Positions 4,358 through 22,882 of a stretch of 64,000 nucleotides of DNA are shown piece after piece. A model generated the notes under the pieces. That model had not been told where the DNA came from. It saw nothing but the letters and a program-made list of their open reading frames with translations, and made no database searches. The translations under genes and the position numbers were made by a program. This DNA comes from a virus, in IMG/VR virus record IMGVR_UViG_3300046007_009781, positions 3,400 through 67,399 of that record. The stretch is one strand, 5' to 3'. Every line of letters starts with the position of its first letter. The stretch's first letter is position 1.

Positions 4358-5995
4358 TCAGTATTTAGTTTTAAAGTAAATTTTAAGCCAGTCCCACTCG
4401 AAACTAAGTTTCAATTGATCATAATTGCCATGAACAGAATCATAGTACTCTATTGCATCTCTAGCACCTGCTAAACACCATTCTGCATAATTACCTTGTG
4501 CAATCGAACACCATTTTTTTAATCTTGACTCTGTTTCTATTGTTGGGGACCCTTGTTGAAAATGTTTTAATTTAAGTACCTCTCGAAAAGCGGTACGCCA
4601 TGTTGTCCAAGGATCTTGATTAAAATGTGCAGTGCCAGATATAATGGGTACTATTTCGTGTGCTTTACTCAGCGTGAAGTCTAACCCCGATTCTATAGTT
4701 TCTAATACTAGCCGTTTATTATAGGCTATCATAGCTTGATGGCCATATACTAAACCGTTAACTGGATTACGGGCATGAAAGATATAATGTTTAGGTTCTT
4801 GCCAGTAGTCAGGTTGCCAATCCCAATCAAAATTGGGGTCTACTTCTAGTTTAGCAAATACAGCAAAAAACCAATCTGTATGACTAGACTCAGCGGCAGT
4901 TTTATATGCCTGCATTCTACCATTAATATTCATTATACGTTGTACGTTTGTTCCTCGACAGTGATCTAAAAGATGATTATACCAACGATCGGCATCAGGT
5001 TCGCCATTGCTTATATACTTTACATCCAGCCCCGGAGATCTGGCAACTACCACATCGTAATTGTTAATGTAAGGATAATCATAAAGTTGGCTATCAAGAT
5101 AACGCTTGACATCTTTAGGCACTAAACAACTAGAATGGTCTGAAGTAAAAGGCACAATTTGTCTATCTTTTTCTCTCCACAAACATATTTCATCATTGAA
5201 TAAAGTTGTTGAGGTATTTTTATGATTAATAAACTTTACATAGGGCCATTTAAAATCATGTTTTTTTATGATTTCTACTAAATTATCTCCTGTGTAGTAG
5301 ATTGTGGGGCAATCGAAAGAAGGAACCCGTTGTTCATCATTATAGTGTATAACATTAAACCAATCTAATAGCTCAAGTTCATACATTTGTTTTCGAAACG
5401 ACTCAACATGAATATAGAATGTATTACCTCGACGGTTTCTTTCATGGGGGCTCCAGCTAAAGCAATGAATCATTTCAGACTGCCATTGACTAGGATGCCA
5501 TGTAAAATCAAAAAGTTCATAGTCACAGATACTGGCCGTAACCCAAATGTATTCGGTTGTGGCCATACTGATGATTCTTTTTAACACATCTAAGTGATTA
5601 TCTACATAACGTATTTTCTTAACATTGCCCCATTTTTCTTGAAGCATAGATAGTTGTGCAGCACTTTCTGGATTCATAAAATCCATATAGTATATAGGTA
5701 CAGAACTAGTTCTGGTTATCTGTTGATTGTGCCAGTGCCAAGCATGTTCCTTAGTTCCTGTTGGCACTAACAAAGTGCCCCCGTTCTGTTGCCATTGGCT
5801 GGGCCATACATGAGTATGATCTGCTTCCCAAGGTACAGGCTTATAACTAAAATCAAATTGACTGTAATCATTATGCCCGTTAATGAACCAAAAGTATTTT
5901 GTCCTACTTAGTTGATCCGCCTGTGATAGATTTTCAGCCGGGCTTTCAAAGGCAAACAGTTCGGGCTTAGGACCCGAATAAAAAACATCAAACAT
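4358..5995 (-). CDS. Multi-module glycosyltransferase(GT-A)-like protein
   Basis: The C-terminal part parallels 19672..20592 (ARNPVNGLVYG / ARNIINGLMYG; WRTAFREVLKL / WRAGFREGVKM). The N-terminal part has degenerate repeats (FDFSYKPVPW / FDFTWHPSQW). Confidence 0.6.
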   Translation of the reverse strand: MFDVFYSGPKPELFAFESPAENLSQADQLSRTKYFWFINGHNDYSQFDFSYKPVPWEADHTHVWPSQWQQNGGTLLVPTGTKEHAWHWHNQQITRTSSVPIYYMDFMNPESAAQLSMLQEKWGNVKKIRYVDNHLDVLKRIISMATTEYIWVTASICDYELFDFTWHPSQWQSEMIHCFSWSPHERNRRGNTFYIHVESFRKQMYELELLDWFNVIHYNDEQRVPSFDCPTIYYTGDNLVEIIKKHDFKWPYVKFINHKNTSTTLFNDEICLWREKDRQIVPFTSDHSSCLVPKDVKRYLDSQLYDYPYINNYDVVVARSPGLDVKYISNGEPDADRWYNHLLDHCRGTNVQRIMNINGRMQAYKTAAESSHTDWFFAVFAKLEVDPNFDWDWQPDYWQEPKHYIFHARNPVNGLVYGHQAMIAYNKRLVLETIESGLDFTLSKAHEIVPIISGTAHFNQDPWTTWRTAFREVLKLKHFQQGSPTIETESRLKKWCSIAQGNYAEWCLAGARDAIEYYDSVHGNYDQLKLSFEWDWLKIYFKTKY

Positions 5996-6425
5996 CGACT
6001 TGTTCTACATCAACATTACATTTTTTTAAAAATTCAATACCATCAACACTGCGGTATTGCTCTCCATAAAATACTCTAGAAATACCTGCTCCGTAAATGC
6101 TTTTAGCACACTCCAAACAAGGAGAATGAGTGATAAACATAGTTGCACCAAGACCACCTTCATTACCTCTTGCTAACTTGTCTAGGGCATTTCGCTCAGC
6201 ATGTAGAACTTCAGGTTTAGTTTCTAAAAATCTTATTTCACCGTTAGGCCATCGTATTTCATCTTCACAATTATTGTCCCATCCAGACGGCATCCCATTG
6301 TATCCGATGCTAATAATTCTGTCGTCTTTAACAACGATAGCACCAACATGTAAGCGTCGAGCAGTGCTACATTCAGCAAATGTCTTTGCTGTTTTCATGT
6401 ATGCATTAATTAATTTTGTTTTCAT
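5988..6425 (-). CDS. cd: dCMP deaminase
   Basis: VGAIVVKD, GYNGMPSG, HAERNAL, SPCLECAK zinc motifs. Confidence 0.95.
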   Translation of the reverse strand: MKTKLINAYMKTAKTFAECSTARRLHVGAIVVKDDRIISIGYNGMPSGWDNNCEDEIRWPNGEIRFLETKPEVLHAERNALDKLARGNEGGLGATMFITHSPCLECAKSIYGAGISRVFYGEQYRSVDGIEFLKKCNVDVEQVDV

Positions 6426-7113
6426 ATTTTTTTAACCAACTTGTTTCAGGCCAATTTGTTCCATTAGGGTTAAAGTTTTCGATTATGTCTTTATATAAAA
6501 TTAAATCTTTTTGAAAATACCTGTCAAATGCAAAATTTCTATATATATTATTTTTTAAATTTTGTTTCCATGTAAAGTCAAAATGTGTTTTAATTTTTTC
6601 ATAAATCAACTTTTCTTCATCATTACTGCTATTCTGATATGTTTGATCTAAACCGGATAAAAGTATTTGCCCTGAATGATTTAACAACATTGTAGTTAAC
6701 TTGACCACCAGATCATTACTATAATAATCTATGGGTATCCAATCAATTTTGTAACAGTATTCCCCCAATGCACTATAATAACTTTCACTGTGAGAATCTA
6801 CAAATGGAATATCTAACATAACTTCAAAGATTTCCGGATTGTCTAAAATTTTTGGATGATTATGGTAAATGTAATGCGCTAGGCCTCTGTGTCTACGGTC
6901 AATGGGATTTCGAATATGAGAAAATACTTTCCCATTCCAATTAATTTGATTTATGGGGATAGATTTCCAACCGTAGTTTTCTATTAAATTTAAATAAAAA
7001 AGACTGCTGGCGCACTTATAGGTTCGAATATATGTTATACTACCACAAGTAGCTGCTTGAAGGCCTTTATATTCAGATGTTATTGTTTGCAGAAAGTATG
7101 CAACATCGAACAT
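6406..7113 (-). CDS. Sulfotransferase-like protein
   Basis: YIRTYKCASS resembles the 5'-PSB loop (PKxAST) and HIRNPIDR the 3'-PB motif (RxPxxR); adjacent to the APS-kinase-like gene. Confidence 0.5.
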   Translation of the reverse strand: MFDVAYFLQTITSEYKGLQAATCGSITYIRTYKCASSLFYLNLIENYGWKSIPINQINWNGKVFSHIRNPIDRRHRGLAHYIYHNHPKILDNPEIFEVMLDIPFVDSHSESYYSALGEYCYKIDWIPIDYYSNDLVVKLTTMLLNHSGQILLSGLDQTYQNSSNDEEKLIYEKIKTHFDFTWKQNLKNNIYRNFAFDRYFQKDLILYKDIIENFNPNGTNWPETSWLKKYENKIN

Positions 7114-7114
7114 T

Positions 7115-7987
7115 TTACAGTAAACCTTGTTTTGTCATTTCTTCTCTAATTTTAGTACCACTTATACTTGTAATGCTTTCGTCAAATGTTTCTTGTTCTA
7201 TTTTGTATCCAACATCTCTGCCGTAGGTAATATTTACTATATTAGGAACAACTTGAATAGTATACTGTCCTTGATAGAAAGGATCAAGATCTCTTTTAAT
7301 CAAGTTAGTAACTTGTTCAATAGCAAACGGATTACTACCTTGCCAACCTTGACAATCACGTATCATAATACAAACTTGTCCAGTTTTTGCAATAGCACGT
7401 TCAAATAGAGCGCGATGTCCTGCATGCCAAGGTTGCCAACGTCCTAGCATTTGAACTGTTTCTTTTTTCCAATCAAAAATAGGTCTACGTTTATTTTGTA
7501 AAATATGTTGCCCTACAAACGGTACCCATTTTTCTGCGTTTTGTTCGTTAATTCTGAAATCATATATTTCAGGGGCCACAAAAGCTTTGTTTGTATCTTC
7601 GTATCTCCCTTGATCAATTGTATCTATCCAAATCGTCCAATCGGCTTTGAAATTATGTCTCATTTCTGGTAAGGGGGCCACAAAGTCACAAATTACAAAA
7701 TCGCCTGAACATTCCAATGCAAACTGAAACATTCGTAAACTTTGTCTAATTCTACCTTCCTTAGTGAAATCCCAATCATTAAATTTCTTACGTATTTCAT
7801 CTGCGTTAAACCAATTAACCTTTGCCTTCCATGCTTTAGGTAAATTTTCTAAATGTAGCATGTGTACTAAAGGCATATGAGAAATATCAGAATAGTTTTC
7901 TAAATAGTATTTTAATCTTTCAGCAAAATAAGTTTTTCCTGCACCAGGCAAACCCATTATCAAAATTCTTTTTGCATGTTGGTTCAT
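7115..7987 (-). CDS. Adenylylsulfate-kinase-like P-loop domain fused to an HxGH nucleotidyltransferase domain
   Basis: GLPGAGKT, NADEIR, DFTKEGRIRQ, FVAP (CysC-like); C-terminal GRWQPWHAGH and ISGTKIRE; AAGGAG RBS upstream. Confidence 0.8.
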   Translation of the reverse strand: MNQHAKRILIMGLPGAGKTYFAERLKYYLENYSDISHMPLVHMLHLENLPKAWKAKVNWFNADEIRKKFNDWDFTKEGRIRQSLRMFQFALECSGDFVICDFVAPLPEMRHNFKADWTIWIDTIDQGRYEDTNKAFVAPEIYDFRINEQNAEKWVPFVGQHILQNKRRPIFDWKKETVQMLGRWQPWHAGHRALFERAIAKTGQVCIMIRDCQGWQGSNPFAIEQVTNLIKRDLDPFYQGQYTIQVVPNIVNITYGRDVGYKIEQETFDESITSISGTKIREEMTKQGLL

Positions 7988-8017: not shown

Positions 8018-9499
8018 TTAGGATAAAACTTTTAAACTATATAATTTTTCGAATCTATCTGCATCTAACCTATCATTGACCATAGGTTCACCCCGAATAT
8101 TAAGACTTGTATTTAATAACATAGGACACCCTGTCAAAACAAACCACTTTTCCAATAGTTCTCGTAAGCCGGACCCGTCTTTGGGTACTGTTTGCACTCT
8201 GCTAGTATCGTCGATATGTACTATCGCAGGATATAAATCCGGCATTTTACATTTTGCTACAAATTGCATATAAGGACTGTTGGATGTTGGCATATCAAAA
8301 TAATCTGAGGCTAACTCCTCTAATATAACAGGCGCAAAAGGTCTAAACTGCTGTCTTTGTTTAATATTGTTCACTTGCATTTTGATATCTGTACCTCTGG
8401 GATCTGCTAACAAACTGCGATTACCTAATGCTCTTGGGCCAAATTCAGCTCGACCATTTGCTACTCCTGCAATTTTATTTGTTAATAACTCATCCAATAA
8501 ATTGGAAACAGGATAAACTCCAGGTATGTTATGTCCCAAAAAAGCATTCTTCCAATTTAATTTTTTACCATATGCCAATGCAGCAGCACCTAAACTACTG
8601 CCTGCATCCCCGGGATTAGGCATTATCCAAACATCATTAAAATAATTAAACAGATTTGAATTAACAACACAGTTTAATGCAACTCCTCCCATGTATACTA
8701 AATTTTCAGACCAATTAAAATTTCTGGCCCTACGCATTACATTGCAAACCAAATTTTCTATTAGTTGTTGAGCAGCTCCTGCAATATCCCAAACATGCCA
8801 ATCGTTCAATTGCTCAGTCTGATGCCCTATGTGAAAATTTTGTTTGAAATCTAAATCCCATTCATTTTCTATGAATAAATTTTTAAAACTATTCAAACGA
8901 TCTGTATTGCGGTTACCATAAGCACTCATGCCCATTAAGATGTATTCTTCATCTAAAGGTTTTAGACCCACTTGTTGTGTCATTGCGCTGTAAAATAATC
9001 CTATACTCTGAGGATATCGTTTAGACCATAATTTTTTATATACAGCACGATCATTAACATATTCTGCTGCCCATATACTAACTGTGTCCCATTCACCAAT
9101 AGCATCGATTACTACTACAGTGGCATGATCAAAATTACTGGTTTGAAAACCTGCTGCGGCATGACTAAGATGATGCGAATAAGATTTTATACTTTTAGGA
9201 AGGACAATTTGATCTTTTAATTGTGCTTTTAGAATTTGTCGAACTGTTAATTTATCCCATTCGATTTTTTGTCCAGAATAAAAGTGTCTAGTTTGTTTTA
9301 ACACTGGATTTTCGTAATAGGCTATTGTATTAAATGGATAATAGGCTAAACAATCATTTATTATTCCATCACTTAGATTAGAGTCATGTTTAATTTTACT
9401 GTATCGTTCACTATGACCTGCAAAAAGAATTTCGCCGTGACAGTCAATGACCGACATGGCTGCGTCATGAAATCCGGCTGAAATTCCTAAAATATTCAT
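8018..9499 (-). CDS. Carbamoyltransferase, NodU/CmcH/TobZ family
   Basis: ILGISAGFHDAA, SERYS, HHLSHAA, VIDAIGE, GGVALNC, PGDAGSSLGAA, EFGPRALGNRS, RPFAP, SRVQTV, LLNTSLN. Confidence 0.95.
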   Translation of the reverse strand: MNILGISAGFHDAAMSVIDCHGEILFAGHSERYSKIKHDSNLSDGIINDCLAYYPFNTIAYYENPVLKQTRHFYSGQKIEWDKLTVRQILKAQLKDQIVLPKSIKSYSHHLSHAAAGFQTSNFDHATVVVIDAIGEWDTVSIWAAEYVNDRAVYKKLWSKRYPQSIGLFYSAMTQQVGLKPLDEEYILMGMSAYGNRNTDRLNSFKNLFIENEWDLDFKQNFHIGHQTEQLNDWHVWDIAGAAQQLIENLVCNVMRRARNFNWSENLVYMGGVALNCVVNSNLFNYFNDVWIMPNPGDAGSSLGAAALAYGKKLNWKNAFLGHNIPGVYPVSNLLDELLTNKIAGVANGRAEFGPRALGNRSLLADPRGTDIKMQVNNIKQRQQFRPFAPVILEELASDYFDMPTSNSPYMQFVAKCKMPDLYPAIVHIDDTSRVQTVPKDGSGLRELLEKWFVLTGCPMLLNTSLNIRGEPMVNDRLDADRFEKLYSLKVLS

Positions 9500-9597
9500 T
9501 TGTAAATAAAAGGATCACGCTTTCTCAGTTCCTTTAATTTTTTTCTGTAACTGATTTCTAGTTTAATTCTAAAATAAAGTTTTCTTAGCCAGCTCAT
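9496..9597 (-). CDS. 33-aa basic peptide MSWLRKLYFRIKLEISYRKKLKELRKRDPFIYK (not in the ORF track)
   Basis: ATG at 9597, TGA at 9496-9498 overlapping the carbamoyltransferase ATG. It fills the gap exactly and has a TAAATA box at 9620-9627. Confidence 0.75.
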   Translation of the reverse strand: MSWLRKLYFRIKLEISYRKKLKELRKRDPFIYK

Positions 9598-10689
9598 TTA
9601 AGATCCCGATTTATTGTTGTATTTACTACTGTAATCATATCCAGGTTTAAGTCTGTTGATCTGTTGTTGATAATAATCTTTGTCCGTCCAACTGTAATCA
9701 TAAACTGATTGTGCTTGTCCTGCTTGAATTTTATAAATGTCTAAATGATCCGACAATTTTTGCCAGATTGTTTCTACATTTACTGTTCCAAAACTTTTTT
9801 CTAAATCTACTTGCCCTACAGGATGATAACCAAAATTATACATCGTATTATCTAAGTCAAAACCATTACGTTGTAACCAAGGTCTGAACTTACGCATTTC
9901 GTCTGTATACCAAGGATGAAGTCCGTTATAACATACATCACGTGCCCATTCAATGTCAAATTCTCCACTGTAATATTTAAGATGTGTAATTGCTTCGCAA
10001 ACTACTTGATCGATATCTGCCCCGTTTTCATCTCGAAAAACTTCATATAATGTTTTACCAATTTGGCTCCAATGAAGATATACCTCACCTAATTTTCTGT
10101 CATAATTAGATTCGTCAAATGATTGTTTTAAATTTTCGGGGTATTCATATCTAGTGGCATTTAGAAAAGTTGTAATCTGACTGGGTCTTATCCATTCAGG
10201 TGCTGTAACTTTTTTTCTTTGACTTAATATCAAGCTTTCAGCTTCGTGGCATAGATTGTTTAGTTGTCTTATTGCAAATTTAGTTTCATAATTTGCTTGA
10301 GCATAATAACTGCTTAACTTCCAAACTGTGCCTTGAAGATTTTCAAAATGATTATGAAGTTTGTTTAATAAATCTTGGTTGGGCTTTAAAGTTTGTGGAT
10401 CTCTGAGATTGTTTATTTCAAATTCTTCAACAATTTGATATTCGTCTCGGAAATAAGAATTGATAACAGATTTGGCCCACGATAACTCTTTACAGATATA
10501 TTCTAAAGAACGGTGGCTGTCTGGAAATCCTAAAAAACAAAAATTTTTTTCTAAATACCGTGTTTGATTTAAAAGCTCTTGAAGAGCCGCATACCACAAT
10601 TTTGCTATTGGTGTATCATATACTTTTATATAGTAAACAAGAAAATCATCTTTTCTTAAAGGGTTTCTTAATGTAACTTCAACATTCAA
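9598..10689 (-). CDS. Hypothetical protein with His/Glu motifs
   Basis: 363 aa in operon context; LNKLHNHFE and LNNLCHEAE. Confidence 0.8.
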   Translation of the reverse strand: MNVEVTLRNPLRKDDFLVYYIKVYDTPIAKLWYAALQELLNQTRYLEKNFCFLGFPDSHRSLEYICKELSWAKSVINSYFRDEYQIVEEFEINNLRDPQTLKPNQDLLNKLHNHFENLQGTVWKLSSYYAQANYETKFAIRQLNNLCHEAESLILSQRKKVTAPEWIRPSQITTFLNATRYEYPENLKQSFDESNYDRKLGEVYLHWSQIGKTLYEVFRDENGADIDQVVCEAITHLKYYSGEFDIEWARDVCYNGLHPWYTDEMRKFRPWLQRNGFDLDNTMYNFGYHPVGQVDLEKSFGTVNVETIWQKLSDHLDIYKIQAGQAQSVYDYSWTDKDYYQQQINRLKPGYDYSSKYNNKSGS

Positions 10690-16513: not shown

Positions 16514-17655
16514 AAAAGTTCTTTAATGTTGTTTGGCAAAGCAGAGGACCTTCTATGGTCCCATTCATCAATAAAATATTTAAACTGTTTATGATACCCA
16601 ACATTATATTGTTCCGACTGTAATGCAGAACACAACGACTCTAATCCAAATGTATAATCTTTATTTTGAATTTGACCAATAAATTCAATTATAGGCTTTC
16701 TCACTTCAGGAGACAACACAGCAAACGTTTGTATTTTTGGATACAAACAATTACTGATAGTTAATGCTATAACGCAATCACGCATTTCATTTCTAAGATC
16801 AGTTATATAATTATAAAAATTTTCAAAATCTAATACTGTTACGGCCGTCATTAAACTTGATATAGAAATTTTTTTTAACTTAGAATTTTTTAAATAATAT
16901 TTCAAATTTTGAAAAAATTTTTCAAAATTTAATCCGTGTCTCACATATTCTGCAATAGTCTTGGTTGCATCAATACTTACATTAAGACTTATTAGAAATT
17001 TATCTTCGTATGACAGCAATCTATCAATAGTACGGAAGTCTACCATAAAATTGCTTGTAAGTCGAACTTCTTTGACTTTTGCATTATCTAATATTTGCCA
17101 TAAACTTTTGTATAAAAAAGGTTCTCCGCCGATTACAGTTAATATTTCAGGACTTTCTTTTGCCAATAAATTAAAATTAGTTTCTCTATTAGATTTATTT
17201 TTTTCAAGAATTTCGTAATTGTATCTATCTGTAAAAATTGGATACATTTTATTACGAATATCCTTTTCCCATTCACTACTAAATTTAGGATTACAATATT
17301 GACATTGTAAATTACAAGTATTACCTAAATTTATTTCTAAGTTCTTAATAGATTTATTTAAATTTTGATATTCCGAATACGACTCAAAATTAAAATCCTT
17401 CAGGTGCTCCATTCTCAGACTGAATTCATTGTTGTTTTCTACCTCCCAACAATACTTGCAAGAATCATCTTGTATATTGTTTAAAAGATTGAATTTTTGG
17501 TTATCTAAAACAGTCTTATAATCTTTTTCAAACAGTAAAGGTACTGCTTTACAACAACTATAGGCAAAATTGTAGGTACTATTTATAACTAATTCATCCC
17601 ATTTAGCTGGACAAAAAGTTTTAGATATATTACTTTGATCGGGCATGATGTGCAC
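16504..17655 (-). CDS. Radical SAM protein with N-terminal twitch domain (divergent, AT-rich)
   Basis: CPAKW..SCC..CKYC; CNLQCQYC; GGEPF; TSN; SID. Confidence 0.88.
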   Translation of the reverse strand: MHIMPDQSNISKTFCPAKWDELVINSTYNFAYSCCKAVPLLFEKDYKTVLDNQKFNLLNNIQDDSCKYCWEVENNNEFSLRMEHLKDFNFESYSEYQNLNKSIKNLEINLGNTCNLQCQYCNPKFSSEWEKDIRNKMYPIFTDRYNYEILEKNKSNRETNFNLLAKESPEILTVIGGEPFLYKSLWQILDNAKVKEVRLTSNFMVDFRTIDRLLSYEDKFLISLNVSIDATKTIAEYVRHGLNFEKFFQNLKYYLKNSKLKKISISSLMTAVTVLDFENFYNYITDLRNEMRDCVIALTISNCLYPKIQTFAVLSPEVRKPIIEFIGQIQNKDYTFGLESLCSALQSEQYNVGYHKQFKYFIDEWDHRRSSALPNNIKELLCI

Positions 17656-19021
17656 ATTCTAAATAATACTCTCTCATTTCCGGAAAAGTGACTACAAAAT
17701 TTGTTTTTCTTCTAGTGTCATGTTCTTTAAAAAATTTGTAAAAATTTGCTTTTTGTTGATTAACATAAGTGGGATCTAATTTCTGCCCTTCTTTCATGTA
17801 ATCAATGACCCGTTGAAGACGCTGCAGTTCGTAATCCTTAAATCCTTTAAAAGGACGATTGCTAGTTTCTAATTTAGTCAACATAAAACTCCAAACTAGT
17901 TCAAGTTGATCAATATAGCTTTCGGGTAGTAGTTGTATATTTTGCCATTCTGGCTTTCGTAAAATCGGAGTGTCAAACCAGACACGTTGATAAGTTTTGC
18001 TATATATTTCTCTAAGACCATGGATATTAGTTATTAAGTCGCCTACACTGGTAACGTTAAGATTGTTCATGGTTATAATAAAAGTCAAACTGCTTCGATT
18101 AGGAACTTCATTAAGAAATCGATTTACATTATTCCACAATCTTTCGAAATTTAAGCCAAAACGAATATATTCAGCACGATCAAACACACTGTCTAAACTA
18201 ACATACTGCATAAAATGTTCAATTTTTTTGTCGTCGTTGTCGCACAGTCTTTTGCAATAATCCAAATATTTTTCAAAAAGTTTAGGCTCTACACTGAAAT
18301 TACTGGTAACGTTTAAGTGTAATTTATGACTAGGATTAGCTAACACATAATCGAAAACTCGATACGTATTTGGATCCAATAAAGGTTCACCTCCGGTCAT
18401 TCTAAAATGTTCTAACTCAGGATATAATTCAGGCCACCAACGCCAAAACGCTTCTACATAAGGGTTATACTCACGGGCAGGAATAGGACGACGATTGCCA
18501 GTAAAATGCTCTGGAGCATTATGAGGTACTAAGGTCGGATATGCACCATATCTAGACACTTCATCTGCCCAAGAACTACTAAACTGAGGGCTGCAATAAC
18601 TACATTTAAGATTACAAGCATGATTAAAATTAACTTCCACATAACTGGGCAAGACATCTTCATCTCCAGTACTGTTTTTAATAGTATCGAAATCTTTAGC
18701 TGCCCATGGTTCCCCGCTGCGATAATGTCTGTCGCTTAAGTTGCCTAAATCTTCCTGAGTCCAACAATAACTACACTCGGCAGGTCGTTGTTGCTGCAGC
18801 ATGATTTTACGCTGCTCTTTTTTGTAAGGTGTGTTGTGTAATGCACTGGGATTATCCTGCAATAGATCTGCGGGCACAGAATGTAAAGGAGGGTGATAAC
18901 AACTGTTGTTTAACCCGGTAGGTAAGTGAAAACTAACTTGCTTCCATTTAGCAAGACACAATGAATTGCCTAATTTTTGTTTAGCATCTTCTGCAGAACT
19001 TAAAAATACACTTTTACTCAT
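17630..19021 (-). CDS. Radical SAM protein with N-terminal twitch domain
   Basis: CLAKW..SCYHP..CSYC; CNLKCSYC; GGEPL; TSN; SLD. Confidence 0.92.
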   Translation of the reverse strand: MSKSVFLSSAEDAKQKLGNSLCLAKWKQVSFHLPTGLNNSCYHPPLHSVPADLLQDNPSALHNTPYKKEQRKIMLQQQRPAECSYCWTQEDLGNLSDRHYRSGEPWAAKDFDTIKNSTGDEDVLPSYVEVNFNHACNLKCSYCSPQFSSSWADEVSRYGAYPTLVPHNAPEHFTGNRRPIPAREYNPYVEAFWRWWPELYPELEHFRMTGGEPLLDPNTYRVFDYVLANPSHKLHLNVTSNFSVEPKLFEKYLDYCKRLCDNDDKKIEHFMQYVSLDSVFDRAEYIRFGLNFERLWNNVNRFLNEVPNRSSLTFIITMNNLNVTSVGDLITNIHGLREIYSKTYQRVWFDTPILRKPEWQNIQLLPESYIDQLELVWSFMLTKLETSNRPFKGFKDYELQRLQRVIDYMKEGQKLDPTYVNQQKANFYKFFKEHDTRRKTNFVVTFPEMREYYLECAHHARSK

Positions 19022-19036
19022 AAGGTTAGATTGTAA

Positions 19037-19675
19037 TTAGATTTGAGGCAATTTGAAATTTGCTAATAACTTTTCTATTTCTTCTGCATTTGAAAAAATA
19101 TCATATAGTGTGATATTGGCATAATCATTTGGAGACCATTTTGTTACGCAATTTTCCGATGTTAAATACTTTAATTCATCGTAATCAATAACTTCATCGC
19201 ATTTAACAAAATAAGTGATCAATTGTTCAGATATCCAAGACTTAATTTTGTTGATATCATAATAAATTTTCTCAGTCTGACTGCTCATATAATTTAAATA
19301 GTCGCTGCTGGATGCTGAATTATGCTTGAACTTAAATGTTTCGTTTTGTTCAAAATTTTTCATCCAAAAGTACCAACTAATAAAATGATTTACTTTATTG
19401 GTTCTTGTAAGTTTTATCACATGCCAATCTGCAATCATCCAAGGATGTGCGACTAAATCAAATTTGGGATCTGTTGCATTAAGTATTGCTATTTGATATA
19501 CATTTGCTATTTTACTGTGAATAACACGAAAATCTATGTCAGCTACTAACTCACCAACGAATCCACTTTTAGCAAAATCTACTTTTTCATTTATAAGACT
19601 GCTTAAAAAATGTGTGCCAGATCTGTAATAACTTACAATCAAAGTTCCTTTTTTATTTTTATCAAATAGTTTCAT
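19037..19675 (-). CDS. Sulfotransferase-like (Stf0-like) protein
   Basis: IVSYYRSGTHFL (5'-PSB, RSGT) and LTRTNKVNHFISW (LxRxN...S). Confidence 0.55.
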   Translation of the reverse strand: MKLFDKNKKGTLIVSYYRSGTHFLSSLINEKVDFAKSGFVGELVADIDFRVIHSKIANVYQIAILNATDPKFDLVAHPWMIADWHVIKLTRTNKVNHFISWYFWMKNFEQNETFKFKHNSASSSDYLNYMSSQTEKIYYDINKIKSWISEQLITYFVKCDEVIDYDELKYLTSENCVTKWSPNDYANITLYDIFSNAEEIEKLLANFKLPQI

Positions 19676-20592
19676 AGTTTGTTTTCTAGGATTTTCCTAA
19701 TATCATTTTCAGTTACAGTTAATCCTACATTCACATGTGATGACTTATAATGATGTTTAAAAAATTTACTTTGTTCTGCATTTAATTCTACAATCGGCAA
19801 ACTTAATCTTAGTTTCAACTGCTCTGTTAATTCATTAGGCGGACAATGTTGAAAATTCTCCCAAAGTTTTTTCAACTTATCAAAATCTTGTACTTCGGTA
19901 TAATTCCAGTCAGTAAACATAGTCAGATATGTACCTAATCTGGCACCGTAAATGGCCCACTCACCGTTTTCTATATCCCTTCCCACTGATTGCCATATAC
20001 ACAAATGATCATAATTCCTTTGATAGACACGTTGTTCAAACTCTGTTAAAGAAGGACGTTTTCCTCTGTCTAAACACATCTTAACGCCTTCTCTAAACCC
20101 AGCACGCCAAGCTTGAAAAGGAGTTGCATTAGGATAAGTTGTGCTATAACAGTCATGCATGGCCCAATATTTAGGATCAAAACAAAACTCAACTTGTGTT
20201 TCATCTCTGCCATCTGTTGCTTCATGAGTTCTCATATTGCGTACAAACTCTTTGGTCCAGCAACTTATTCCCCCATTACCATACATCAGACCATTGATAA
20301 TATTTCTAGCTTTCCATCTAAACACACAATCCTTATTTTGTTCATTTAATTCTAATCTTAAATTAAAAAAATCTGGATCTGGCAGATTGTCCCCGTCAAT
20401 AAGAATAAAACGATCTGTGTCACTGGCTTGCCCAGCTGCTTTGTGTGCAGCATCACTGCCCTTGATTCCGTCGACACGTTTAGCCCAAGGAACTAAATTT
20501 TGAATTTTAATCCAAAATTCTTCCCGTTTAGGTTCGTCGTAAGTTAAAAAAATACAGTCTAAGTCAGCTACGTCGATTACTTCTGTAGTCAT
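19672..20592 (-). CDS. Glycosyltransferase(GT-A)-like protein
   Basis: DCIFLTYDEP, AAHKAA, FILIDGDN (DxD motif after a hydrophobic strand); paralog of the C-terminal part of 4358..5995. Confidence 0.6.
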   Translation of the reverse strand: MTTEVIDVADLDCIFLTYDEPKREEFWIKIQNLVPWAKRVDGIKGSDAAHKAAGQASDTDRFILIDGDNLPDPDFFNLRLELNEQNKDCVFRWKARNIINGLMYGNGGISCWTKEFVRNMRTHEATDGRDETQVEFCFDPKYWAMHDCYSTTYPNATPFQAWRAGFREGVKMCLDRGKRPSLTEFEQRVYQRNYDHLCIWQSVGRDIENGEWAIYGARLGTYLTMFTDWNYTEVQDFDKLKKLWENFQHCPPNELTEQLKLRLSLPIVELNAEQSKFFKHHYKSSHVNVGLTVTENDIRKILENKL

Positions 20593-20953
20593 AGTGTTCT
20601 ATGTTCTCGTATTCATCTTCTGTGGTTAATGGTAGGCTGGCATTATTTTTGACCACTGCAACACCTTTTTCACTTCTTATCAATCCAGGACGTACAAATC
20701 CCATATGTTGTGGAATAGGTTCAGGCTTACCATTTTCAATTCTATATCTGACATAATTTTTATGTATAGACTCATCTACGACTACAAAATTTCCGTCTTC
20801 AATAGGATCAGATTTTTGATTAGTTGTTCTATAAATTATGCCTTCTTCATTATAATACAGTCTATATTCATATTCAATCTTTTTGGGCGGATCTAATAAA
20901 TCAAATGCTTTAATAAGTTCTAGTAAGGCAGGATCTTCTATATTGTTGTTCAT
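20564..20953 (-). CDS. Hypothetical protein
   Basis: 129 aa, overlaps both neighbours. Confidence 0.7.
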   Translation of the reverse strand: MNNNIEDPALLELIKAFDLLDPPKKIEYEYRLYYNEEGIIYRTTNQKSDPIEDGNFVVVDESIHKNYVRYRIENGKPEPIPQHMGFVRPGLIRSEKGVAVVKNNASLPLTTEDEYENIEHYDYRSNRRS

Positions 20954-21782
20954 AATGTTCTAACCTTTCATCAGTTATAAAACTCTTTTCATAATAGTGA
21001 ATCGGATCATATTGATTCAAGTTATGTATACGTATCATGTTTTCATCTTGTTCTACTGTAGTCATTTGTTGCCAGTCACCCATGTCTGACCAATTTTGTA
21101 TAGCTGACTTCATATGAACAAAATTGATAAATTGCAGACTAGGCAGTGTGCAGTTTTCCACTCCCAGTGTTTTTGCTGTAATTGCATAAAGTACATCAGT
21201 GCTAGGCACATTTTCTCTACAATTTTTTAAAATATTATTTTTCAAATAATCCCAATTATCTAATATTTGTTTTGCTGTATGAAAAAATTGATTGGCAAAC
21301 TGACTAAATCTAAAATACATTAAACCATTGTACACATCCGGTAACTCATTATCATCAAAAAATTTTCTATATGTTCTTTTATCGGATAATTGTTGTCTAT
21401 AATTTTTACAACCCGTACTTAAAACAACATCTTTAAGTCTGAATGCAGTTAACCAATGGTCTATAGGTCTGGTCACTAACAAATCAGATTCTAATTTAAT
21501 GGTTTCTTTAAAAGGAGTTAATGTAAATGCTTGACATTCGTTAGCAAATTTCCATTCCGAATTTTCATGGTTATAATCGTGTTCTAACTCTATTATGTAG
21601 TCAAACACTTCATGACATGAAGGTGTTAAACAAGCCGCAGTGGGTTTATCTACGATTACTGCATATTTCATTTGTCTATGAATAGATTTGAAATTACAGG
21701 CTTGTGCATATGCTAATCTCAAATAATCTGTGCTGCTGTTGTTTTGTGCAAACGTTAAAAAACCAACACCACTTTTATTCAT
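20910..21782 (-). CDS. Glycosyltransferase-like protein (GT8/GT-A-like)
   Basis: GFLTFAQN..DYLRLA, TPFKETIKLESD, YNGLMYF; paralog of 21775..22605. Confidence 0.6.
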   Translation of the reverse strand: MNKSGVGFLTFAQNNSSTDYLRLAYAQACNFKSIHRQMKYAVIVDKPTAACLTPSCHEVFDYIIELEHDYNHENSEWKFANECQAFTLTPFKETIKLESDLLVTRPIDHWLTAFRLKDVVLSTGCKNYRQQLSDKRTYRKFFDDNELPDVYNGLMYFRFSQFANQFFHTAKQILDNWDYLKNNILKNCRENVPSTDVLYAITAKTLGVENCTLPSLQFINFVHMKSAIQNWSDMGDWQQMTTVEQDENMIRIHNLNQYDPIHYYEKSFITDERLEHYEQQYRRSCLTRTY

Positions 21783-22605
21783 TGCAAACCTTGTCTACAA
21801 AGTTTATAAATTGTTCGGACAACAAATAATCTTTATCCATAATGTGTAAATCTTGTTTTGCTGTCACAATTGCGTTAGCATAATTTTTAATTACTAGTAA
21901 AGAATTTTCTATATTCAAAGATTTCACATCTTCCTTGATAGTTAACATAGGCCACGGTATACTTGTATGTTGATCTAACGCATATCCGTTTAAAATAATG
22001 TTAGCTATACTAAAAGAATGATCATTTCGATAGTTACTATCCCTCATTGAATAAAGAACTTTAAAGTAATTATAATTTTGTTGAATTCGTTTTACTAGGT
22101 CGAAGAATAATCTTGTCCGAACAGTTTTTCTGAAAAGAACGACTGTGGCCCATATCAAAGGCAAACTGGAAGGGCCCATTTCTTCATTACTGATGCCTTG
22201 TGGGGTTTGCATTTGATACATTAATTTATAATCAAATTGTTGATGAAACAGTTTTAAAAGTGAGCTGTCTAAAACTAGATAATCTGTGTCTAATAATAGT
22301 GTTTCGTCATAGGGGCTCAAATCCAGCACACTACATCTATCAAAATTACGCCATTCTACTAAATTATTTTTCTTATCTAATCTATAATTTCCCGATTTAG
22401 AACTCACCCTAATGATATTGTCATATTCATACAAAGGCGTAGCATCGTTATCTGTTATTAATGTAATAGGAAGTTTGAGATGTTTACTTATTAGTCTACT
22501 ACTCAAATCTGCTATTTTAACATAATCAACTGTACTACTGTTAAACGCAAAAAGAACAACCCCTTTAGACTTTTCTAATTCGTTTGATTCTGTCATATTG
22601 ATCAT
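21775..22605 (-). CDS. Glycosyltransferase-like protein (GT8/GT-A-like)
   Basis: GVVLFAFN..DYVKIA, SPYDETLLLDTDY (DxD), WATVVLF, RNDHSF. Confidence 0.65.
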   Translation of the reverse strand: MINMTESNELEKSKGVVLFAFNSSTVDYVKIADLSSRLISKHLKLPITLITDNDATPLYEYDNIIRVSSKSGNYRLDKKNNLVEWRNFDRCSVLDLSPYDETLLLDTDYLVLDSSLLKLFHQQFDYKLMYQMQTPQGISNEEMGPSSLPLIWATVVLFRKTVRTRLFFDLVKRIQQNYNYFKVLYSMRDSNYRNDHSFSIANIILNGYALDQHTSIPWPMLTIKEDVKSLNIENSLLVIKNYANAIVTAKQDLHIMDKDYLLSEQFINFVDKVCNE

Positions 22606-22882
22606 GCCAAAGATTCATTTGTGCTTGGTAGTGGCGAATAGCTAAGGATAGAAATTCTTTTCTATTAATTTGAATAGGATTTTGATATGTGTCTTCTAAA
22701 AATAAATCATCGTTGGGCCAAACTGACACAAATGAAATCAACTCAGGCGTAATTTTGAACAATCCATTATTATAAGGCAAATGTAAATCTGCTTGGATTT
22801 TTTCTCTAAGTAATCGTTTGTTGATTTGAAAATCGGTGGATTTTTTGATTTGATCCACAATTTCGGACATACTAGAATTCAT
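22565..22882 (-). CDS. Hypothetical protein
   Basis: 105 aa between the structural genes and the GT genes. Confidence 0.75.
   Translation of the reverse strand: MNSSMSEIVDQIKKSTDFQINKRLLREKIQADLHLPYNNGLFKITPELISFVSVWPNDDLFLEDTYQNPIQINRKEFLSLAIRHYQAQMNLWHDQYDRIKRIRKV

Follow-up and report, generated by a model that had tools for sequence, protein, structure and literature searches.

Gene organization of the block

The window, a 64,000-nucleotide stretch of DNA from a jumbo phage from lake water, carries at positions 4358–22882 a minus-strand block of 20 abutting or overlapping ORFs, immediately upstream of which lie two fibre-like ORFs, FibA and FibB (Table 1). From 22882 down to 4358, the intergenic gaps range from −44 to +30 nt, the exception being 98 nt ahead of the carbamoyltransferase gene, in keeping with the same-strand, mostly overlapping ORFs right after the fibre genes described in an earlier note on this DNA, made from the sequence alone. 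The block encodes six N-twitch radical SAM enzymes (rSAMs), a NodU-type carbamoyltransferase, the fusion protein KinNT, an SGNH-like hydrolase and the glycosyltransferase-like proteins GTA, GTA2, GT8a and GT8b. It further holds a dCMP deaminase, a cyclophilin-like protein (Cyp, the 363-aa product of 9598–10689) and a conserved 33-aa ORF, none of which the earlier note had listed; the promoter/hairpin spacer at 22883–22939 was likewise missing from its list. Genes for ThyA and DHFR adjoin the block, and a DegT gene is also found convergent just past GTA2 in four related loci (L011, L033, L034 and L040).

Table 1. Features of the block and its flanks, with positions in the window; locus counts and identities are from tblastn.
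Feature	Position	Strand	Description
SDR 4,6-dehydratase/epimerase	1885–2862	+	sugar-nucleotide gene, convergent with block (NCBIfam)
DegT/PseC-type aminotransferase	2859–3950	+	sugar-nucleotide gene, convergent with block (NCBIfam)
u136	3947–4357	−	final ORF of this strand; 0/36 related loci
GTA2	4358–5995	−	545 aa; residues 321–514 homologous to GTA (hhalign 97%)
dCMP deaminase	5988–6425	−	PF00383 76 bits; phrog_174 E 3.2e-51; between KinNT and GTA2
Putative sulfotransferase-like ORF	6406–7113	−	235 aa; motif reading of the earlier note
KinNT	7115–7987	−	APS-kinase-like P-loop kinase fused to HxGH nucleotidyltransferase
NodU/CmcH-type O-carbamoyltransferase	8018–9499	−	493 aa; PF02543 138.6 bits, PF16861 161.5 bits
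33-aa basic ORF	9496–9597	−	conserved; fills 98-nt gap ahead of carbamoyltransferase
Cyp	9598–10689	−	conserved, 363 aa; modelled cyclophilin-like beta-barrel with inserted helical bundle
R6	10679–11980	−	NF033640 296.2 bits
SGNH/GDSL-like hydrolase	11973–12623	−	216 aa; accessory gene
R5	12616–13833	−	NF033640 333.1 bits
R4	13830–15170	−	NF033640 401.3 bits; type nearest to bacterial family members
R3	15167–16513	−	NF033640 290.7 bits; median identity 70.6% over 36 loci
R2	16504–17655	−	NF033640 175.5 bits; variable slot
R1	17630–19021	−	NF033640 320 bits; R1/R3 subgroup
Sulfotransferase-like ORF	19037–19675	−	212 aa; accessory, seen only in this window
GTA	19672–20592	−	306 aa; GT-A / nucleotide-diphospho-sugar-transferase fold (model)
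u129	20564–20953	−	conserved small protein; 23/36 loci, ~35% identity
GT8b	20910–21782	−	290 aa; GT8-like putative glycosyltransferase
GT8a	21775–22605	−	276 aa; GT8-like putative glycosyltransferase; invariant D106-x-D108
u105	22565–22882	−	conserved, 105 aa; first gene past spacer
Spacer FibB/enzyme block	22883–22939	−	weak sigma-70-like promoter and short hairpins
FibB	22940–23878	−	312 aa, 29% Ser+Thr; candidate glycan acceptor
FibA	23895–25520	−	fibre-like virion protein, 541 aa, 21% Ser+Thr

The Cyp model (pLDDT 87.9) aligns to cyclophilins with VIA-align Z scores of 7–8.4; Foldseek returned no match at E ≤0.001, neither Pfam nor NCBIfam gave a family for the protein, fused forms included, and its family comprises 665 representative clusters. 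The 33-aa ORF begins right next to the stop codon of Cyp and terminates in overlap with the ATG of the carbamoyltransferase gene; it was read in the window and in 8 loci that have this gene directly after Cyp. The dCMP deaminase occurs in 15/36 related loci (tblastn), and holds the same position in every listed gene order that includes it. Searches of Pfam, PHROG and NCBIfam assigned no family to u105 or u129; u105 is present in 27/36 loci with a median identity of 57% (tblastn), and its homolog in Ralstonia phage RsoM2USA is 34% identical.

Radical SAM enzymes

The six radical SAM genes of the earlier note are confirmed: all exceed the curated NF033640 N_Twi_rSAM cut-off (175.5–401.3 bits against 170; NCBIfam), a score reached by no copy in 14 control genomes. 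The BtrN-like twitch domain that it had invoked is also present, lying at the N-terminus and aligning to BtrN residues 183–258 (E 3.8e-5). For the rSAM core, the best sequence matches among solved structures are 8vpo (E 2.8e-11) and SkfB (E 6.7e-9), followed by BlsE, viperin, MoaA and BtrN, which act on sugars or nucleotides. The 8vpo structure is reportedly cited by a paper on rSAM cyclopropyl synthases with peptide substrates; Pfam and NCBIfam detected no peptide-recognition domain in the six proteins.

Ortholog-level identity to R2 (42–43%) is limited to 5 loci (tblastn). For R4, a bacterial genome collection yielded 74 loci, the bacterial copies being 32–39% identical to it. One relative, 98% complete, has 13 N-twitch rSAM matches, of which 8 lie outside the cluster, singly and near genes for DNA polymerase, helicase, ribonucleotide reductase and GroEL, so that the family is not everywhere tied to glycan genes.

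Glycosyltransferase-like proteins

The four glycosyltransferase-like genes proposed earlier hold up to differing degrees. GTA, with the invariant motif I65-D-G-D-N69 (DxD), was modelled with a pLDDT of 69.4, and Foldseek places mostly GT-A-fold glycosyltransferases at the head of its matches (E 4.4e-3 to 3.4e-2; VIA-align Z 6.7–8.4 over residues 5–155), with same-fold nucleotidyltransferases scoring as high as glycosyltransferases. The fold matches include the viral capsid-glycosylating GT-A enzymes PBCV-1 A64R, Mimivirus R655 and STIV A197. GTA belongs to a very abundant family of relatives, with at least 8000 clusters, none of which has a Pfam family. GTA2 is drawn in by its GTA-homologous domain, its N-terminal 320 residues yielding no significant link. 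GT8a and GT8b are paralogs of each other (hhalign 97.9%), and their assignment to GT8 is weak. The GT8b family profile matches glycogenin-1 (E 0.02, residues 4–111), and its nearest annotated Atlas clusters, as language-model neighbours, carry PF03407 or PF01501 (score 0.95); a Pfam search with GT8b and a PDB sequence search with GT8a gave no match, and hhalign found no link to a true GT8 gene of Vibrio phage K566.

Carbamoyl, kinase, esterase and sulfotransferase-like genes

The carbamoyltransferase proposed in the earlier note is confirmed by its two Pfam domains and by phrog_1601 (E 4.9e-95), which PHROGs files under 'moron, auxiliary metabolic gene and host takeover'; its 139.5 bits fall under the NodU equivalog cut-off of 1000 (NCBIfam). 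The proposed APS-kinase/nucleotidyltransferase fusion is supported by the KinNT family profile, which matches APS kinases over residues 7–89 (E 1.1e-8) and NMN adenylyltransferase over residues 157–212 (E 4.9e-4). By tblastn, the carbamoyltransferase is found in 32/36 loci and KinNT in 25/36, counts that may include paralog cross-hits. The SGNH-like assignment is likewise backed by its family profile (GDSL protein, E 6.4e-6; thioesterase I, ~1e-4) and by the invariant residues Gly12, Ser14, Gly18 and His197, the first motif reading GCS in the window copy against GDS in relatives. GDSL-like proteins are the commonest accessory family of the related loci, with 40 ORFs.

The two sulfotransferase-like genes fared differently. 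Atlas model neighbours of the ORF at 19037–19675 include a viral Sulfotransfer_3 cluster (TM 0.66), a lead in favour of the assignment; it has no Pfam match and no tblastn hit in the 36 related loci. For the ORF at 6406–7113, nothing was found beyond the original motif reading: none of its 23 relatives has a Pfam family, there is no PDB match or hhalign link, and it occurs in 7/36 loci (tblastn, paralog cross-hits possible). Five relatives, one of them 98% complete, yielded no ATP sulfurylase or CysD-type gene. Given this result and the sparse distribution of the sulfotransferase-like ORFs, sulfation would be at most an optional decoration. The Nod-factor-like logic of carbamoyl transfer, PAPS supply and sulfate transfer proposed in the earlier note is therefore weak, its carbamoyltransferase and kinase-fusion components being widespread and its sulfotransferase component rare.

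Conservation in phages and bacteria

Synteny of the block extends over 36 uncultured phage loci, with the conserved order FibA, FibB, u105, GT8a, GT8b, u129, GTA, R1, R3, R4, R5, R6, Cyp, carbamoyltransferase, KinNT, dCMP deaminase, GTA2 and with variable slots interspersed among these genes. Sequence conservation is higher in the enzymes, with median identities of 66–74% for the rSAMs and 69.5% for GTA, against 39–45% for the fibre-like proteins (tblastn, 36 loci). Of the 27 loci holding u105, the first cluster gene, 25 have FibB immediately ahead of it and the other two are cut at the locus edge; the same adjacency occurs in three marine phage-like contigs; the co-conservation with fibre-like genes that the earlier note had anticipated is thus found, in RsoM2USA too. 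Relatives also carry, as accessory genes, UDP-glucose dehydrogenase with an epimerase, and numerous GDSL esterases.

In Bacteroidota, the same rSAM family is paired with glycosyltransferases, sugar-nucleotide enzymes, carbamoyltransferase, sulfotransferase and GDSL genes. In seven of the eight bacterial loci examined, its partners are UbiA prenyltransferases or glycosyltransferases of the GT2, GT4 or PMT_2 type, and sugar-nucleotide enzymes are often present too; the eighth (L063) has none of these. One chromosome (L073) holds UDP-glucose dehydrogenase, epimerase, carbamoyltransferase, Sulfotransfer_3 and GDSL genes together with three such rSAMs, and a UbiA-GT4-GDSL fusion is also found among the bacterial loci.

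Fibre-like proteins and transcription signals

FibA matches phrog_14394 'virion structural protein' (E 1e-9) and phrog_19602 'tail fiber protein' (E 5e-5), with no match in a PDB sequence search. FibB and 14 relatives have no Pfam, NCBIfam or PHROG family, and its candidate label as a fibre is based on position and composition.

The late-type motif ATAAATA, which precedes the FibA start at 31 nt, is found ahead of structural genes and not ahead of the block; within the block, its only occurrence (17580–17586) lies inside R2. In the window, the spacer promoter reads TTAACA-17-CATAGT or TTAAAA-17-TACAAT. In relatives, a strong promoter has its −10 box within a terminator-like hairpin of 10–18 bp. 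Of 23 unique spacers from relatives, 18 have a sigma-70-type promoter (at least 10/12 positions) ahead of the first cluster gene, against 16 of 311 control regions; hairpins of at least 8 bp occur in 19/23 against 63/311, and T-rich tails in 7/23 against 0/311. The late-operon linkage claimed in the earlier note is thus not supported as stated. Judging from these signals, the relatives' enzymes appear to have a sigma-70-type promoter of their own for transcription, in which case they would precede the late virion proteins. In T4-like phages, a sigma-70-type promoter marks early genes, a class that includes DNA-modification and host-takeover functions.

Discussion

The block probably builds an unusual decorated glycan. 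Its glycan-tailoring role, in agreement with the sugar/glycan building-and-tailoring cluster proposed in the earlier note, is well supported by the synteny in 36 loci, the form found in RsoM2USA and the pairing with glycan genes in Bacteroidota. As to its target, we tentatively favour a self-contained cytoplasmic pathway of glycan assembly and tailoring, with the Ser/Thr-rich fibre-like proteins as the most likely acceptors. Beyond the fold and family assignments, every step of this pathway is one that we infer. Activated sugars would be supplied by the SDR and DegT enzymes, possibly also by KinNT, and transferred by the two GT8-like enzymes and the two GT-A-domain proteins. The five conserved N-twitch rSAMs and the variable sixth could each initiate, by hydrogen abstraction, a distinct change at an unactivated sugar carbon, with oxidation, epimerisation, deoxygenation and C-C rearrangement as candidate outcomes. 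The carbamoyltransferase would add an O-carbamoyl group, and the variable-slot accessories (SGNH esterase, sulfotransferase-like ORFs and extra rSAMs) may diversify the product among phages.

Glycosylation of the virion is favoured by the strict adjacency of FibB and its 29% Ser+Thr, by the fold matches to viral capsid-glycosylating GT-A enzymes, and by the co-occurrence of rSAMs and glycosyltransferases in independent settings (K566 and bacterial loci). Counting against it are the middling GTA fold matches (Foldseek E 4e-3 at best; VIA-align Z up to 8.4), the weak GT8 assignment, the basis of the FibB label, the embedded dCMP deaminase, the solitary rSAMs outside the cluster, the peptide maturases as closest solved rSAM-core sequences, and the predicted promoter and terminator-like hairpin that separate the block from the fibre genes. 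These last signals in relatives, with no late motif ahead of the block, would also fit an early auxiliary pathway that remodels a host glycoconjugate (LPS or capsule) or makes a soluble glycoside, fibre adjacency then reflecting genome-architecture synteny rather than any tie in function. The bacterial counterparts lie near envelope-glycoconjugate-type membrane enzymes (UbiA, PMT_2 and the UbiA-GT4-GDSL fusion), the rSAM/GT8 cluster of K566 adjoins an LpxC gene (Pfam) and a gene annotated PagP in its record, and the PHROGs category of the carbamoyltransferase points the same way. We nevertheless regard this reading as rather unlikely: all 23 ORFs lack a membrane-spanning segment (maximum Kyte-Doolittle 19-residue mean 1.32), so that the acceptor should be reachable in the cytoplasm, and a Pfam search found no flippase, polymerase or lipid-carrier transferase in the block. 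The fibre-like gene adjacency is strict and extends to distant phages, the enzymes are conserved beyond what is usual in accessory metabolic genes, and GTA belongs to a very abundant family.

Early-type promoters would also suit hypermodification of phage DNA with glycosyl, carbamoyl or other base groups, as with T4-like DNA-modification genes. The dCMP deaminase between KinNT and GTA2, the neighbouring ThyA and DHFR, kinase, nucleotidyltransferase and GT-A domains compatible with base modification, and the solitary rSAMs near replication genes in one relative are consistent with this, but ThyA scores as an ordinary thymidylate synthase (E 1.7e-116), and its pairing with DHFR accords with normal dTMP synthesis. 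A glycan is also a better match than DNA for the sugar-nucleotide enzymes, the SGNH esterases and the sulfotransferase-like genes, bacterial clusters that share the rSAM family are of glycan or envelope type, and Pfam, PHROG and NCBIfam detected no DNA-binding or base-flipping domain in any ORF, making DNA modification improbable. We give least credence to the rSAMs maturing a peptide or protein (RiPP-like crosslinks or epimerisations) to which the glycosyltransferases then add sugars, the substrate being a fibre protein, u105, u129 or the 33-aa ORF. The 8vpo and SkfB matches, the three small conserved ORFs within the block and a bacterial locus (L105) with a C39-peptidase ABC exporter and HlyD beside an rSAM and a GT2 gene speak for it. 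It is opposed by the N-terminal twitch domain without a peptide-recognition domain, by the next-best matches to enzymes of sugars and nucleotides, and by K566 and 6/7 other bacterial contexts, dominated by glycosyltransferases, prenyltransferases or sugar enzymes; the low cysteine content of FibA (1) and FibB (2) argues against thioether chemistry.

As a pathway for virion glycans, this uncharacterised yet abundant cluster would represent an unusual form of virus-encoded glycosylation. In RsoM2USA, a reduced block adjoins virion genes, with a fibre-like gene upstream as in the window; its single rSAM copy is of the R1/R3 subgroup type (ORF349, 35% identical to R1), and the neighbouring ORFs 356, 359 and 361 are reported as found in virions by mass spectrometry (PMC8504454). 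Vibrio phage K566 resembles the window in another way, with four such rSAMs interleaved with two Pfam-confirmed GT8 genes.

A conserved enzyme block beside fibre-like genes

The minus-strand enzyme genes that follow the fibre-like genes FibA and FibB, here called the block, probably encode a pathway that builds and tailors a sugar or glycan. Their ORFs, running from 22882 down to 4358, overlap or stand end to end. The source record is 67.4 kb long, with a completeness of 19% (CheckV), and the window encodes T4-like baseplate, portal and late-sigma genes, the portal protein being about 52% identical to those of the jumbo phages PA5oct, Phosso and Atu_ph07. By these markers, the window is a fragment of a jumbo myovirus. 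Its GC content is even, ranging from 0.31 to 0.41 in 2-kb steps, and the block is not distinct in this respect. Near-identical DNA was present in 24 public runs, all labelled lake-water or freshwater metagenome and none of them RNA, and neither the cluster nor the baseplate region had a megablast match among 50,697 phage records.

An IMG/VR scan with one radical SAM gene as query yielded 36 loci, which share the common order FibA, FibB, u105, GT8a, GT8b, u129, GTA, R1, R3, R4, R5, R6, Cyp, CarbT, KinNT, dCD, GTA2, with additional genes confined to a few fixed insertion slots. Identity across loci amounts to 66-74% for five radical SAM proteins, 69.5% for GTA and 39-45% for the fibre-like proteins. 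Of the 27 loci with u105, 25 have FibB as its immediate upstream neighbour, the remaining two ending there at a locus edge; the block is co-conserved with fibre-like genes. Other genes are more sporadic: no more than 5 loci have an ortholog of R2 (42-43% identity), and the SGNH-like ORF occurs in 6 loci, ORF 6406-7113 in 7 and ORF 19037-19675 in none of the 36, all of these counts being lower bounds, since contig ends cut many loci.

The loci contain 132 accessory ORFs in 33 groups. In the largest, with 40 ORFs, a canonical GDS motif could be read by eye in three members, and other accessory genes encode further radical SAM proteins, UDP-glucose dehydrogenase and epimerase, and an AMP-binding enzyme. 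One accessory family of about 330 aa (A10, 29 ORFs) occupies variable slots in L013, L020, L022-L024, L026, L028, L035, L036, L039, L041 and L043. Its invariant segment E-K...P...P...G is, in our own estimation, reminiscent of fucosyltransferase motifs; neither a Pfam search with one representative nor a profile search of the PDB supported a fucosyltransferase.

Coordinates of the block genes, their neighbours and other features of the window
Feature	Position	Strand	Description
4534-aa gene	26353-39957	-	virion structural protein (phrog_10938), between the gp6-like wedge gene and the fibre-like genes
FibA	23895-25520	-	fibre-like
FibB	22940-23878	-	fibre-like
FibB-u105 spacer	22883-22939	-	
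u105	22565-22882	-	first gene of the block
GT8a	21775-22605	-	glycosyltransferase-like
GT8b	20910-21782	-	glycosyltransferase-like
u129	20564-20953	-	
GTA	19672-20592	-	glycosyltransferase-like
ORF 19037-19675	19037-19675	-	sulfotransferase-like candidate
R2	16504-17655	-	radical SAM
ATAAATA copy	17580-17586		inside R2
SGNH-like ORF	11973-12623	-	
Cyp	9598-10689	-	363 aa
33-aa ORF	9496-9597	-	in the apparent 98-nt gap between Cyp and CarbT
CarbT	8018-9499	-	carbamoyltransferase
KinNT	7115-7987	-	kinase/nucleotidyltransferase
ORF 6406-7113	6406-7113	-	sulfotransferase-like candidate
dCD	5988-6425	-	dCMP deaminase
GTA2	4358-5995	-	545 aa
Seventh radical SAM gene	54860-56578	+	other type, adjoining SbcCD genes
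u673	58587-60608		preceded by ATAAATA

The PHROG matches of FibA bear the labels "virion structural protein" and "tail fiber", and a sequence-profile search of the PDB gave nothing usable for it. FibB, of which Ser and Thr make up 29%, had no annotated PHROG match, nor had 14 of its relatives. The same arrangement of fibre, GT8-like, GTA and radical SAM genes occurs on three short marine contigs that were binned as bacterial MAGs and resemble phage DNA.

Four short contigs in MAG bins, L046, L075, L077 and L082, bear the labels Polynucleobacter, Betaproteobacteria, Verrucomicrobia and Rickettsiales; L075, L077 and L082 show the fibre-plus-enzyme arrangement of the phages, and L046 has only an R4 homolog (67% identical). 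These four contigs probably represent phage DNA that was placed in MAG bins by mistake, and their labels give no reliable host assignment.

Among the 50,697 phage records, tblastn found homologs of GTA and GT8b only in the cultured Ralstonia phage RsoM2USA. Its reduced module comprises the fibre-like ORF355, homologs of u105, GT8a and GT8b, a small ORF, a GTA homolog, one radical SAM gene of the R1/R3 type and a second GTA-like ORF, with a tail-sheath gene and an epimerase/dehydratase gene upstream. According to the available excerpt of the RsoM2USA report, mass spectrometry of the most abundant gel bands placed ORFs 356, 359 and 361 in virions, the module itself going unmentioned in that excerpt (PMC8504454). 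The same excerpt has a counterpart of the window's 4534-aa protein, of more than 288 kDa, detected in virions (PMC8504454).

Radical SAM proteins and their genomic company

The six radical SAM genes (R1-R6) proposed for the block are confirmed as such, each exceeding the curated cut-off of 170 bits of NCBIfam NF033640 (N_Twi_rSAM, "twitch domain-containing radical SAM protein") with whole-protein scores, from R6 to R1, of 296.2, 333.1, 401.3, 290.7, 175.5 and 320 bits, at a mutual identity of only 19-25%. The CxxxCxxC motif (C159, C163, C166) and the SAM-binding GGEP (G224-G-E-P227) are invariant in 11 paralogs, and in the N-terminus C45, C64 and C105 are invariant, with C108 present in at least 90% of sequences. 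Pfam SPASM falls on the N-terminus of three of the six ORFs, and profile positions 4-80 align with residues 183-258 of BtrN, a twitch radical SAM enzyme, within its C-terminal twitch domain (E 3.8e-5). We know of no characterised member of NF033640.

The 354-kb, 98%-complete relative G001 has 13 NF033640 matches, 12 of them above the cut-off and only five inside the cluster. The N-twitch genes outside it are solitary and adjoin genes for DNA polymerase, helicase, ribonucleotide reductase, GroEL and deaminase; most copies in this genome stand singly beside replication genes, which argues against a strict tie of the family to glycans. In G001, the region L120 (one of L120-L125) combines GTP cyclohydrolase I, a PTPS/QueD-like gene and a small radical SAM gene, and resembles the 7-deazaguanine precursor pathway. 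The window's seventh radical SAM gene is tungsten-cofactor/SPASM-maturase-like, with a C-terminal SDR-like fusion.

Beyond this lineage, Vibrio phage K566 carries four N-twitch radical SAM genes that alternate with a GT4-like gene and two GT8 genes confirmed by Pfam. A prokaryote scan with one genome per species gave 74 loci; among eight long contigs examined, the family is paired with glycosyltransferases, UbiA prenyltransferases or sugar enzymes in seven, the exception being L063, which has none of these. One of the seven, L073, is a Crocinitomicaceae chromosome encoding UDP-glucose dehydrogenase, an epimerase, a carbamoyltransferase, a UbiA-GT4-GDSL fusion and three N-twitch radical SAM proteins, together with Sulfotransfer_3, GDSL, PhyH and a WelO5-like halogenase. 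In a Saprospiraceae locus, three radical SAM genes are accompanied by GT2, DegT, epimerase and UbiA; a Chitinophagales locus has UbiA, seven radical SAM genes and GDSL, and other loci have GT2 or PMT_2. These seven contigs and K566 make sugar-handling enzymes the recurrent partners of the family. Besides, the phage's combination of carbamoyl, sulfo and GDSL functions is repeated in one bacterial cluster.

Transferases and tailoring enzymes

The count of four glycosyltransferase-like genes made in the earlier note is reasonable, but the fold is firm just for GTA and for residues 321-514 of GTA2. The link of the other pair to GT8 is weak. GT8a, GT8b, GTA and GTA2 are all unnamed by the Pfam, NCBIfam and PHROG libraries. 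For the AlphaFold model of GTA (pLDDT 69.4), Foldseek ranks mostly glycosyltransferases of the GT-A fold at the top (E 4.4e-3 to 3.4e-2), and exhaustive VIA-align comparison assigns residues 5-155 to the nucleotide-diphospho-sugar-transferase fold (Z 6.7-8.4, rmsd 3-4 Å, 123-140 residues aligned), with scores that are middling and at which nucleotidyltransferases of the same fold tie with glycosyltransferases. Its fold matches include PBCV-1 A64R, Mimivirus R655 and STIV A197, and its DxD motif (D66-G67-D68) is invariant in 25 sequences. The homology of GTA2 to GTA (hhalign 97%) is confined to the stretch named, hhalign of its N-terminal 320 residues against GTA being negative, as was that of GTA against GT8b. 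With the GTA profile, the best hit among PDB sequences was an unrelated binding protein (E 0.026). Public metagenomes contain at least 8000 sequence clusters of GTA relatives, every one unnamed or "hypothetical", which places the pathway in a very abundant group of lake phages; among the matches listed, none of 120 relatives had a precomputed Pfam domain.

GT8a and GT8b are mutual paralogs (hhalign 97.9%). The GT8b profile weakly matches glycogenin-1 (E 0.02), its Atlas feature neighbours carry PF01501 or PF03407 (score 0.95), and D106-x-D108 of GT8a is invariant. PF01501 itself was detected on neither protein, hhalign of GT8b against the GT8 gene of K566 was negative, and the GT8a profile found nothing usable among PDB sequences.

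CarbT is a carbamoyltransferase of the NodU/CmcH type, as proposed, scoring 138.6 bits on PF02543 (cut-off 24) and 161.5 on PF16861 (cut-off 27). With 139.5 bits on the NodU equivalog NF041651, far under its cut-off of 1000, it is by these profiles a member of the same superfamily as NodU and not NodU proper. KinNT is a P-loop kinase fused to an HxGH nucleotidyltransferase, and its kinase part is a tentative APS kinase: the family profile best matches APS kinases (E 1.1e-8 to 1e-3, limited to residues 5-92), and the HxGH domain matches NMN adenylyltransferases, not sulfurylases. On PF01583, KinNT reaches 21.2 bits against a cut-off of 21.1, no single stretch passing alone. Its role in PAPS supply is uncertain, because sulfotransferase-like ORFs are rare in the lineage and no ATP sulfurylase or CysD-type gene (PF01747, PF01507) was present in five related records, one of them 98% complete. 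The heptose enzyme HldE, which is of the kinase plus HxGH nucleotidyltransferase type, activates a sugar, and by analogy KinNT could equally serve sugar activation.

The SGNH-like gene lived up to its name, its family profile matching a GDSL protein (E 6.4e-6) and thioesterase I (7.7e-5); G12, S14, G18 and H197, catalytic Ser and His included, are invariant in the family and N57 occurs in at least 90% of sequences, with Cys replacing the usual Asp before Ser in the window's copy. Of the two sulfotransferase-like ORFs claimed, ORF 19037-19675 retains a lead, the structural neighbours of its Atlas model including Sulfotransfer_3 (TM 0.66) and Sulfotransfer_1 (TM 0.50), with no Pfam match and no BLASTP match to the bacterial Sulfotransfer_3 protein. 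ORF 6406-7113 is tied to no family. Its presumed resemblance to a sulfotransferase motif found no echo in Pfam, NCBIfam or the PDB, and hhalign of its family was negative against both the bacterial Sulfotransfer_3 protein and ORF 19037-19675.

The Cyp model (pLDDT 87.9) shows a cyclophilin-like barrel with a helical insert (VIA-align Z 7-8.4); Foldseek returned nothing at E ≤0.001 and a PDB sequence-profile search nothing usable. The 665 representative clusters of this family are all without annotation. Fused forms of 712-775 aa contain no Pfam or NCBIfam domain, and GT8a and GTA were negative by hhalign against a fused protein.

Transcription of the block

The earlier note regarded the block as a continuation of the late tail operon, a view that the predicted promoter signals do not support. 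ATAAATA occurs 10 times in the window against 44.7 ± 6.8 expected, a depletion of about 4.5-fold, and four of the ten precede a gene start by 24-44 nt, the genes being FibA, the gp6-like wedge gene, the virion protein gene vsp306 and u673, three of which are annotated structural genes. A core of this type also precedes FibA in relatives. The sites fit T4-type late promoters, and the window encodes a gp55-like late sigma factor; in this phage group, ATAAATA probably forms the core of late promoters. It is missing upstream of u105, a single copy lies inside the variable R2, and the extended motif ATAAATAT[AT]AAA is absent from the cluster strand in the 36 loci.

The spacer between FibB and u105 carries signals of another kind. 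In relatives (L008-L043), 18 of the 23 unique spacers match the sigma-70-type promoter TTGACA-N17/18-TATAAT at 10 or more of its 12 positions, versus 16 of 311 controls taken from upstream of nine other genes of the cluster. Gapless stems of 8 bp or longer are present in 19/23 spacers (63/311 controls), followed by at least five T within the next 8 nt in 7/23 (0/311), and in many printed spacers the -10 box can be seen by eye within the hairpin or at its edge. The window's own spacer is weaker (9/12 promoter positions, stems of 7-8 bp). Generic scans of the block were not above chance for promoters (106 sites, 92.8 ± 8.9 expected), and terminators numbered 5 against 8.7 ± 3.0 expected. We read the spacer as a predicted terminator of the late fibre genes overlapping a host-sigma-type promoter of the enzyme block, which would probably be its own transcription unit, expressed before the late genes.

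Acceptor and product

The adjacent fibre-like protein may be the acceptor of the pathway, a proposal that we hold with somewhat less than even confidence. It is favoured by the strict synteny with fibre genes in distant phages, the all-soluble enzymes, the Ser/Thr-rich neighbour and the fold matches to viral capsid glycosyltransferases, and it is weakened by the separate early-type promoter and the embedded dCMP deaminase. None of the 23 ORFs between 3947 and 26154 has a membrane-spanning hydrophobic stretch, and Pfam and NCBIfam searches detected no flippase, polymerase or lipid-carrier transferase, which argues for an acceptor available in the cytoplasm, be it DNA, a soluble molecule or a virion protein that is yet to be assembled. 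A product destined for the host surface, or a soluble one, is unlikely, though the K566 cluster adjoins an LpxC gene and a gene annotated PagP in its record.

Hypermodification of DNA, another cytoplasmic target, appears improbable. The deaminase, missing from the gene list of the earlier note, scores 76 bits on PF00383 (cut-off 25) with HAE and PCxxC zinc-binding motifs in its translation. Slightly more improbable still is peptide maturation. Between Cyp and CarbT lies a conserved, strongly basic 33-aa ORF, whose ATG directly follows the Cyp stop and whose TGA overlaps the CarbT ATG, and which can be read in eight related loci where Cyp and CarbT are adjacent; it might act as a small subunit or a peptide substrate, or represent a readthrough extension. 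In one bacterial locus a C39-peptidase exporter stands next to a radical SAM and a GT2 gene.

Returning to fibre decoration, a more specific and tentative scenario, in our view a rather doubtful one, is that in an abundant lineage of jumbo phages from fresh and marine waters, to which RsoM2USA is a cultured relative, at least five N-twitch radical SAM enzymes rewrite sugars already on fibre proteins, with the variable slots acting as a generator of fibre-surface diversity. If true, this would be the first radical-SAM-dependent virion glycosylation system and the first functional assignment of NF033640, as glycan-modifying radical enzymes. Decorated fibres would extend virus-encoded glycosylation to T4-like jumbo phages, with radical chemistry added, and would bear on host recognition, protease protection and antigenic variation; with DNA or the host surface as target, the pathway would nonetheless represent a new way of modification by multiple radical SAM enzymes. 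About a dozen copies of NF033640 occur here per phage genome, the family is also fixed in a conserved cassette with glycosyltransferases, and the conserved scaffold with its variable slots is a natural source of new sugar-tailoring enzymes. In the literature searched, we found no published description of the cluster. Giant viruses and mycobacteriophages are already known to encode glycosylation, but no conserved tailoring cassette with multiple radical SAM genes is known, and its function here is one that we infer.

Comparison with known systems

Virions are glycosylated by virus-encoded enzymes in the chlorovirus PBCV-1, whose capsid glycans involve A64R, and in Mimivirus, on its fibrils. O-glycosylation of mycobacteriophage capsids and tails has reportedly been described as well, by Freeman et al. 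2023. Like these systems, the block and the window have GT-A enzymes, a 4,6-dehydratase and an aminotransferase at or near structural genes, and a Ser/Thr-rich structural protein as a plausible acceptor. In addition, the phage has radical SAM proteins, a carbamoyltransferase and the KinNT fusion, and its block seems to be under its own early-type promoter. To our knowledge, neither radical SAM proteins nor a carbamoyltransferase nor a kinase/nucleotidyltransferase fusion belongs to any glycosylation system of PBCV-1, Mimivirus or mycobacteriophages.

With the bacterial N_Twi_rSAM clusters, none of which is characterised as far as we know, the block shares tandem radical SAM copies, and with L073 in particular a carbamoyltransferase (31% identity), Sulfotransfer_3, GDSL esterases, UDP-glucose dehydrogenase, epimerase and glycosyltransferases. 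The bacterial clusters add UbiA, PMT_2 and GT4 fusions, which are membrane proteins, as well as PhyH dioxygenases and a WelO5-like halogenase, whereas the phage block has no membrane protein. The transferases also differ, as BLAST finds none of the phage type (GT8-like, GTA) in the long bacterial contigs.

Nod factors are decorated through carbamoylation by NodU, PAPS supply by NodPQ and sulfation by NodH, and the logic of the block had been likened to theirs. The analogy is weak. It has on its side the NodU-family domain pair, the APS-kinase-like domain and one sulfotransferase-like fold lead; it fails at the NodU cut-off, at the sulfurylase missing from five relatives and at the sulfotransferase-like ORFs, present in 7 and 0 of 36 loci. 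The block also differs in having no chitin-oligomer synthase, and its dominant five to six radical SAM proteins have no Nod counterpart. Another comparison is with BtrN, one of the twitch radical SAM enzymes of sugar and aminoglycoside pathways, with which the block's radical SAM proteins share an auxiliary-cluster twitch domain, CxxxCxxC and four further conserved Cys, and the glycosyltransferase, aminotransferase and carbamoyltransferase neighbours in the phage resemble an aminoglycoside toolkit. Here, however, the twitch is N-terminal instead of C-terminal, sequence similarity to BtrN does not extend beyond the twitch, and there is no inosose synthase. Finally, the available excerpt on a 183-kb T4-like marine genome treats its 12 radical SAM genes only as clients of Fe-S clusters and describes no cluster and no glycosyltransferase or fibre link (PMC5332604); G001, with 12 N-twitch copies above the cut-off, is like that genome in the number of its radical SAM genes.
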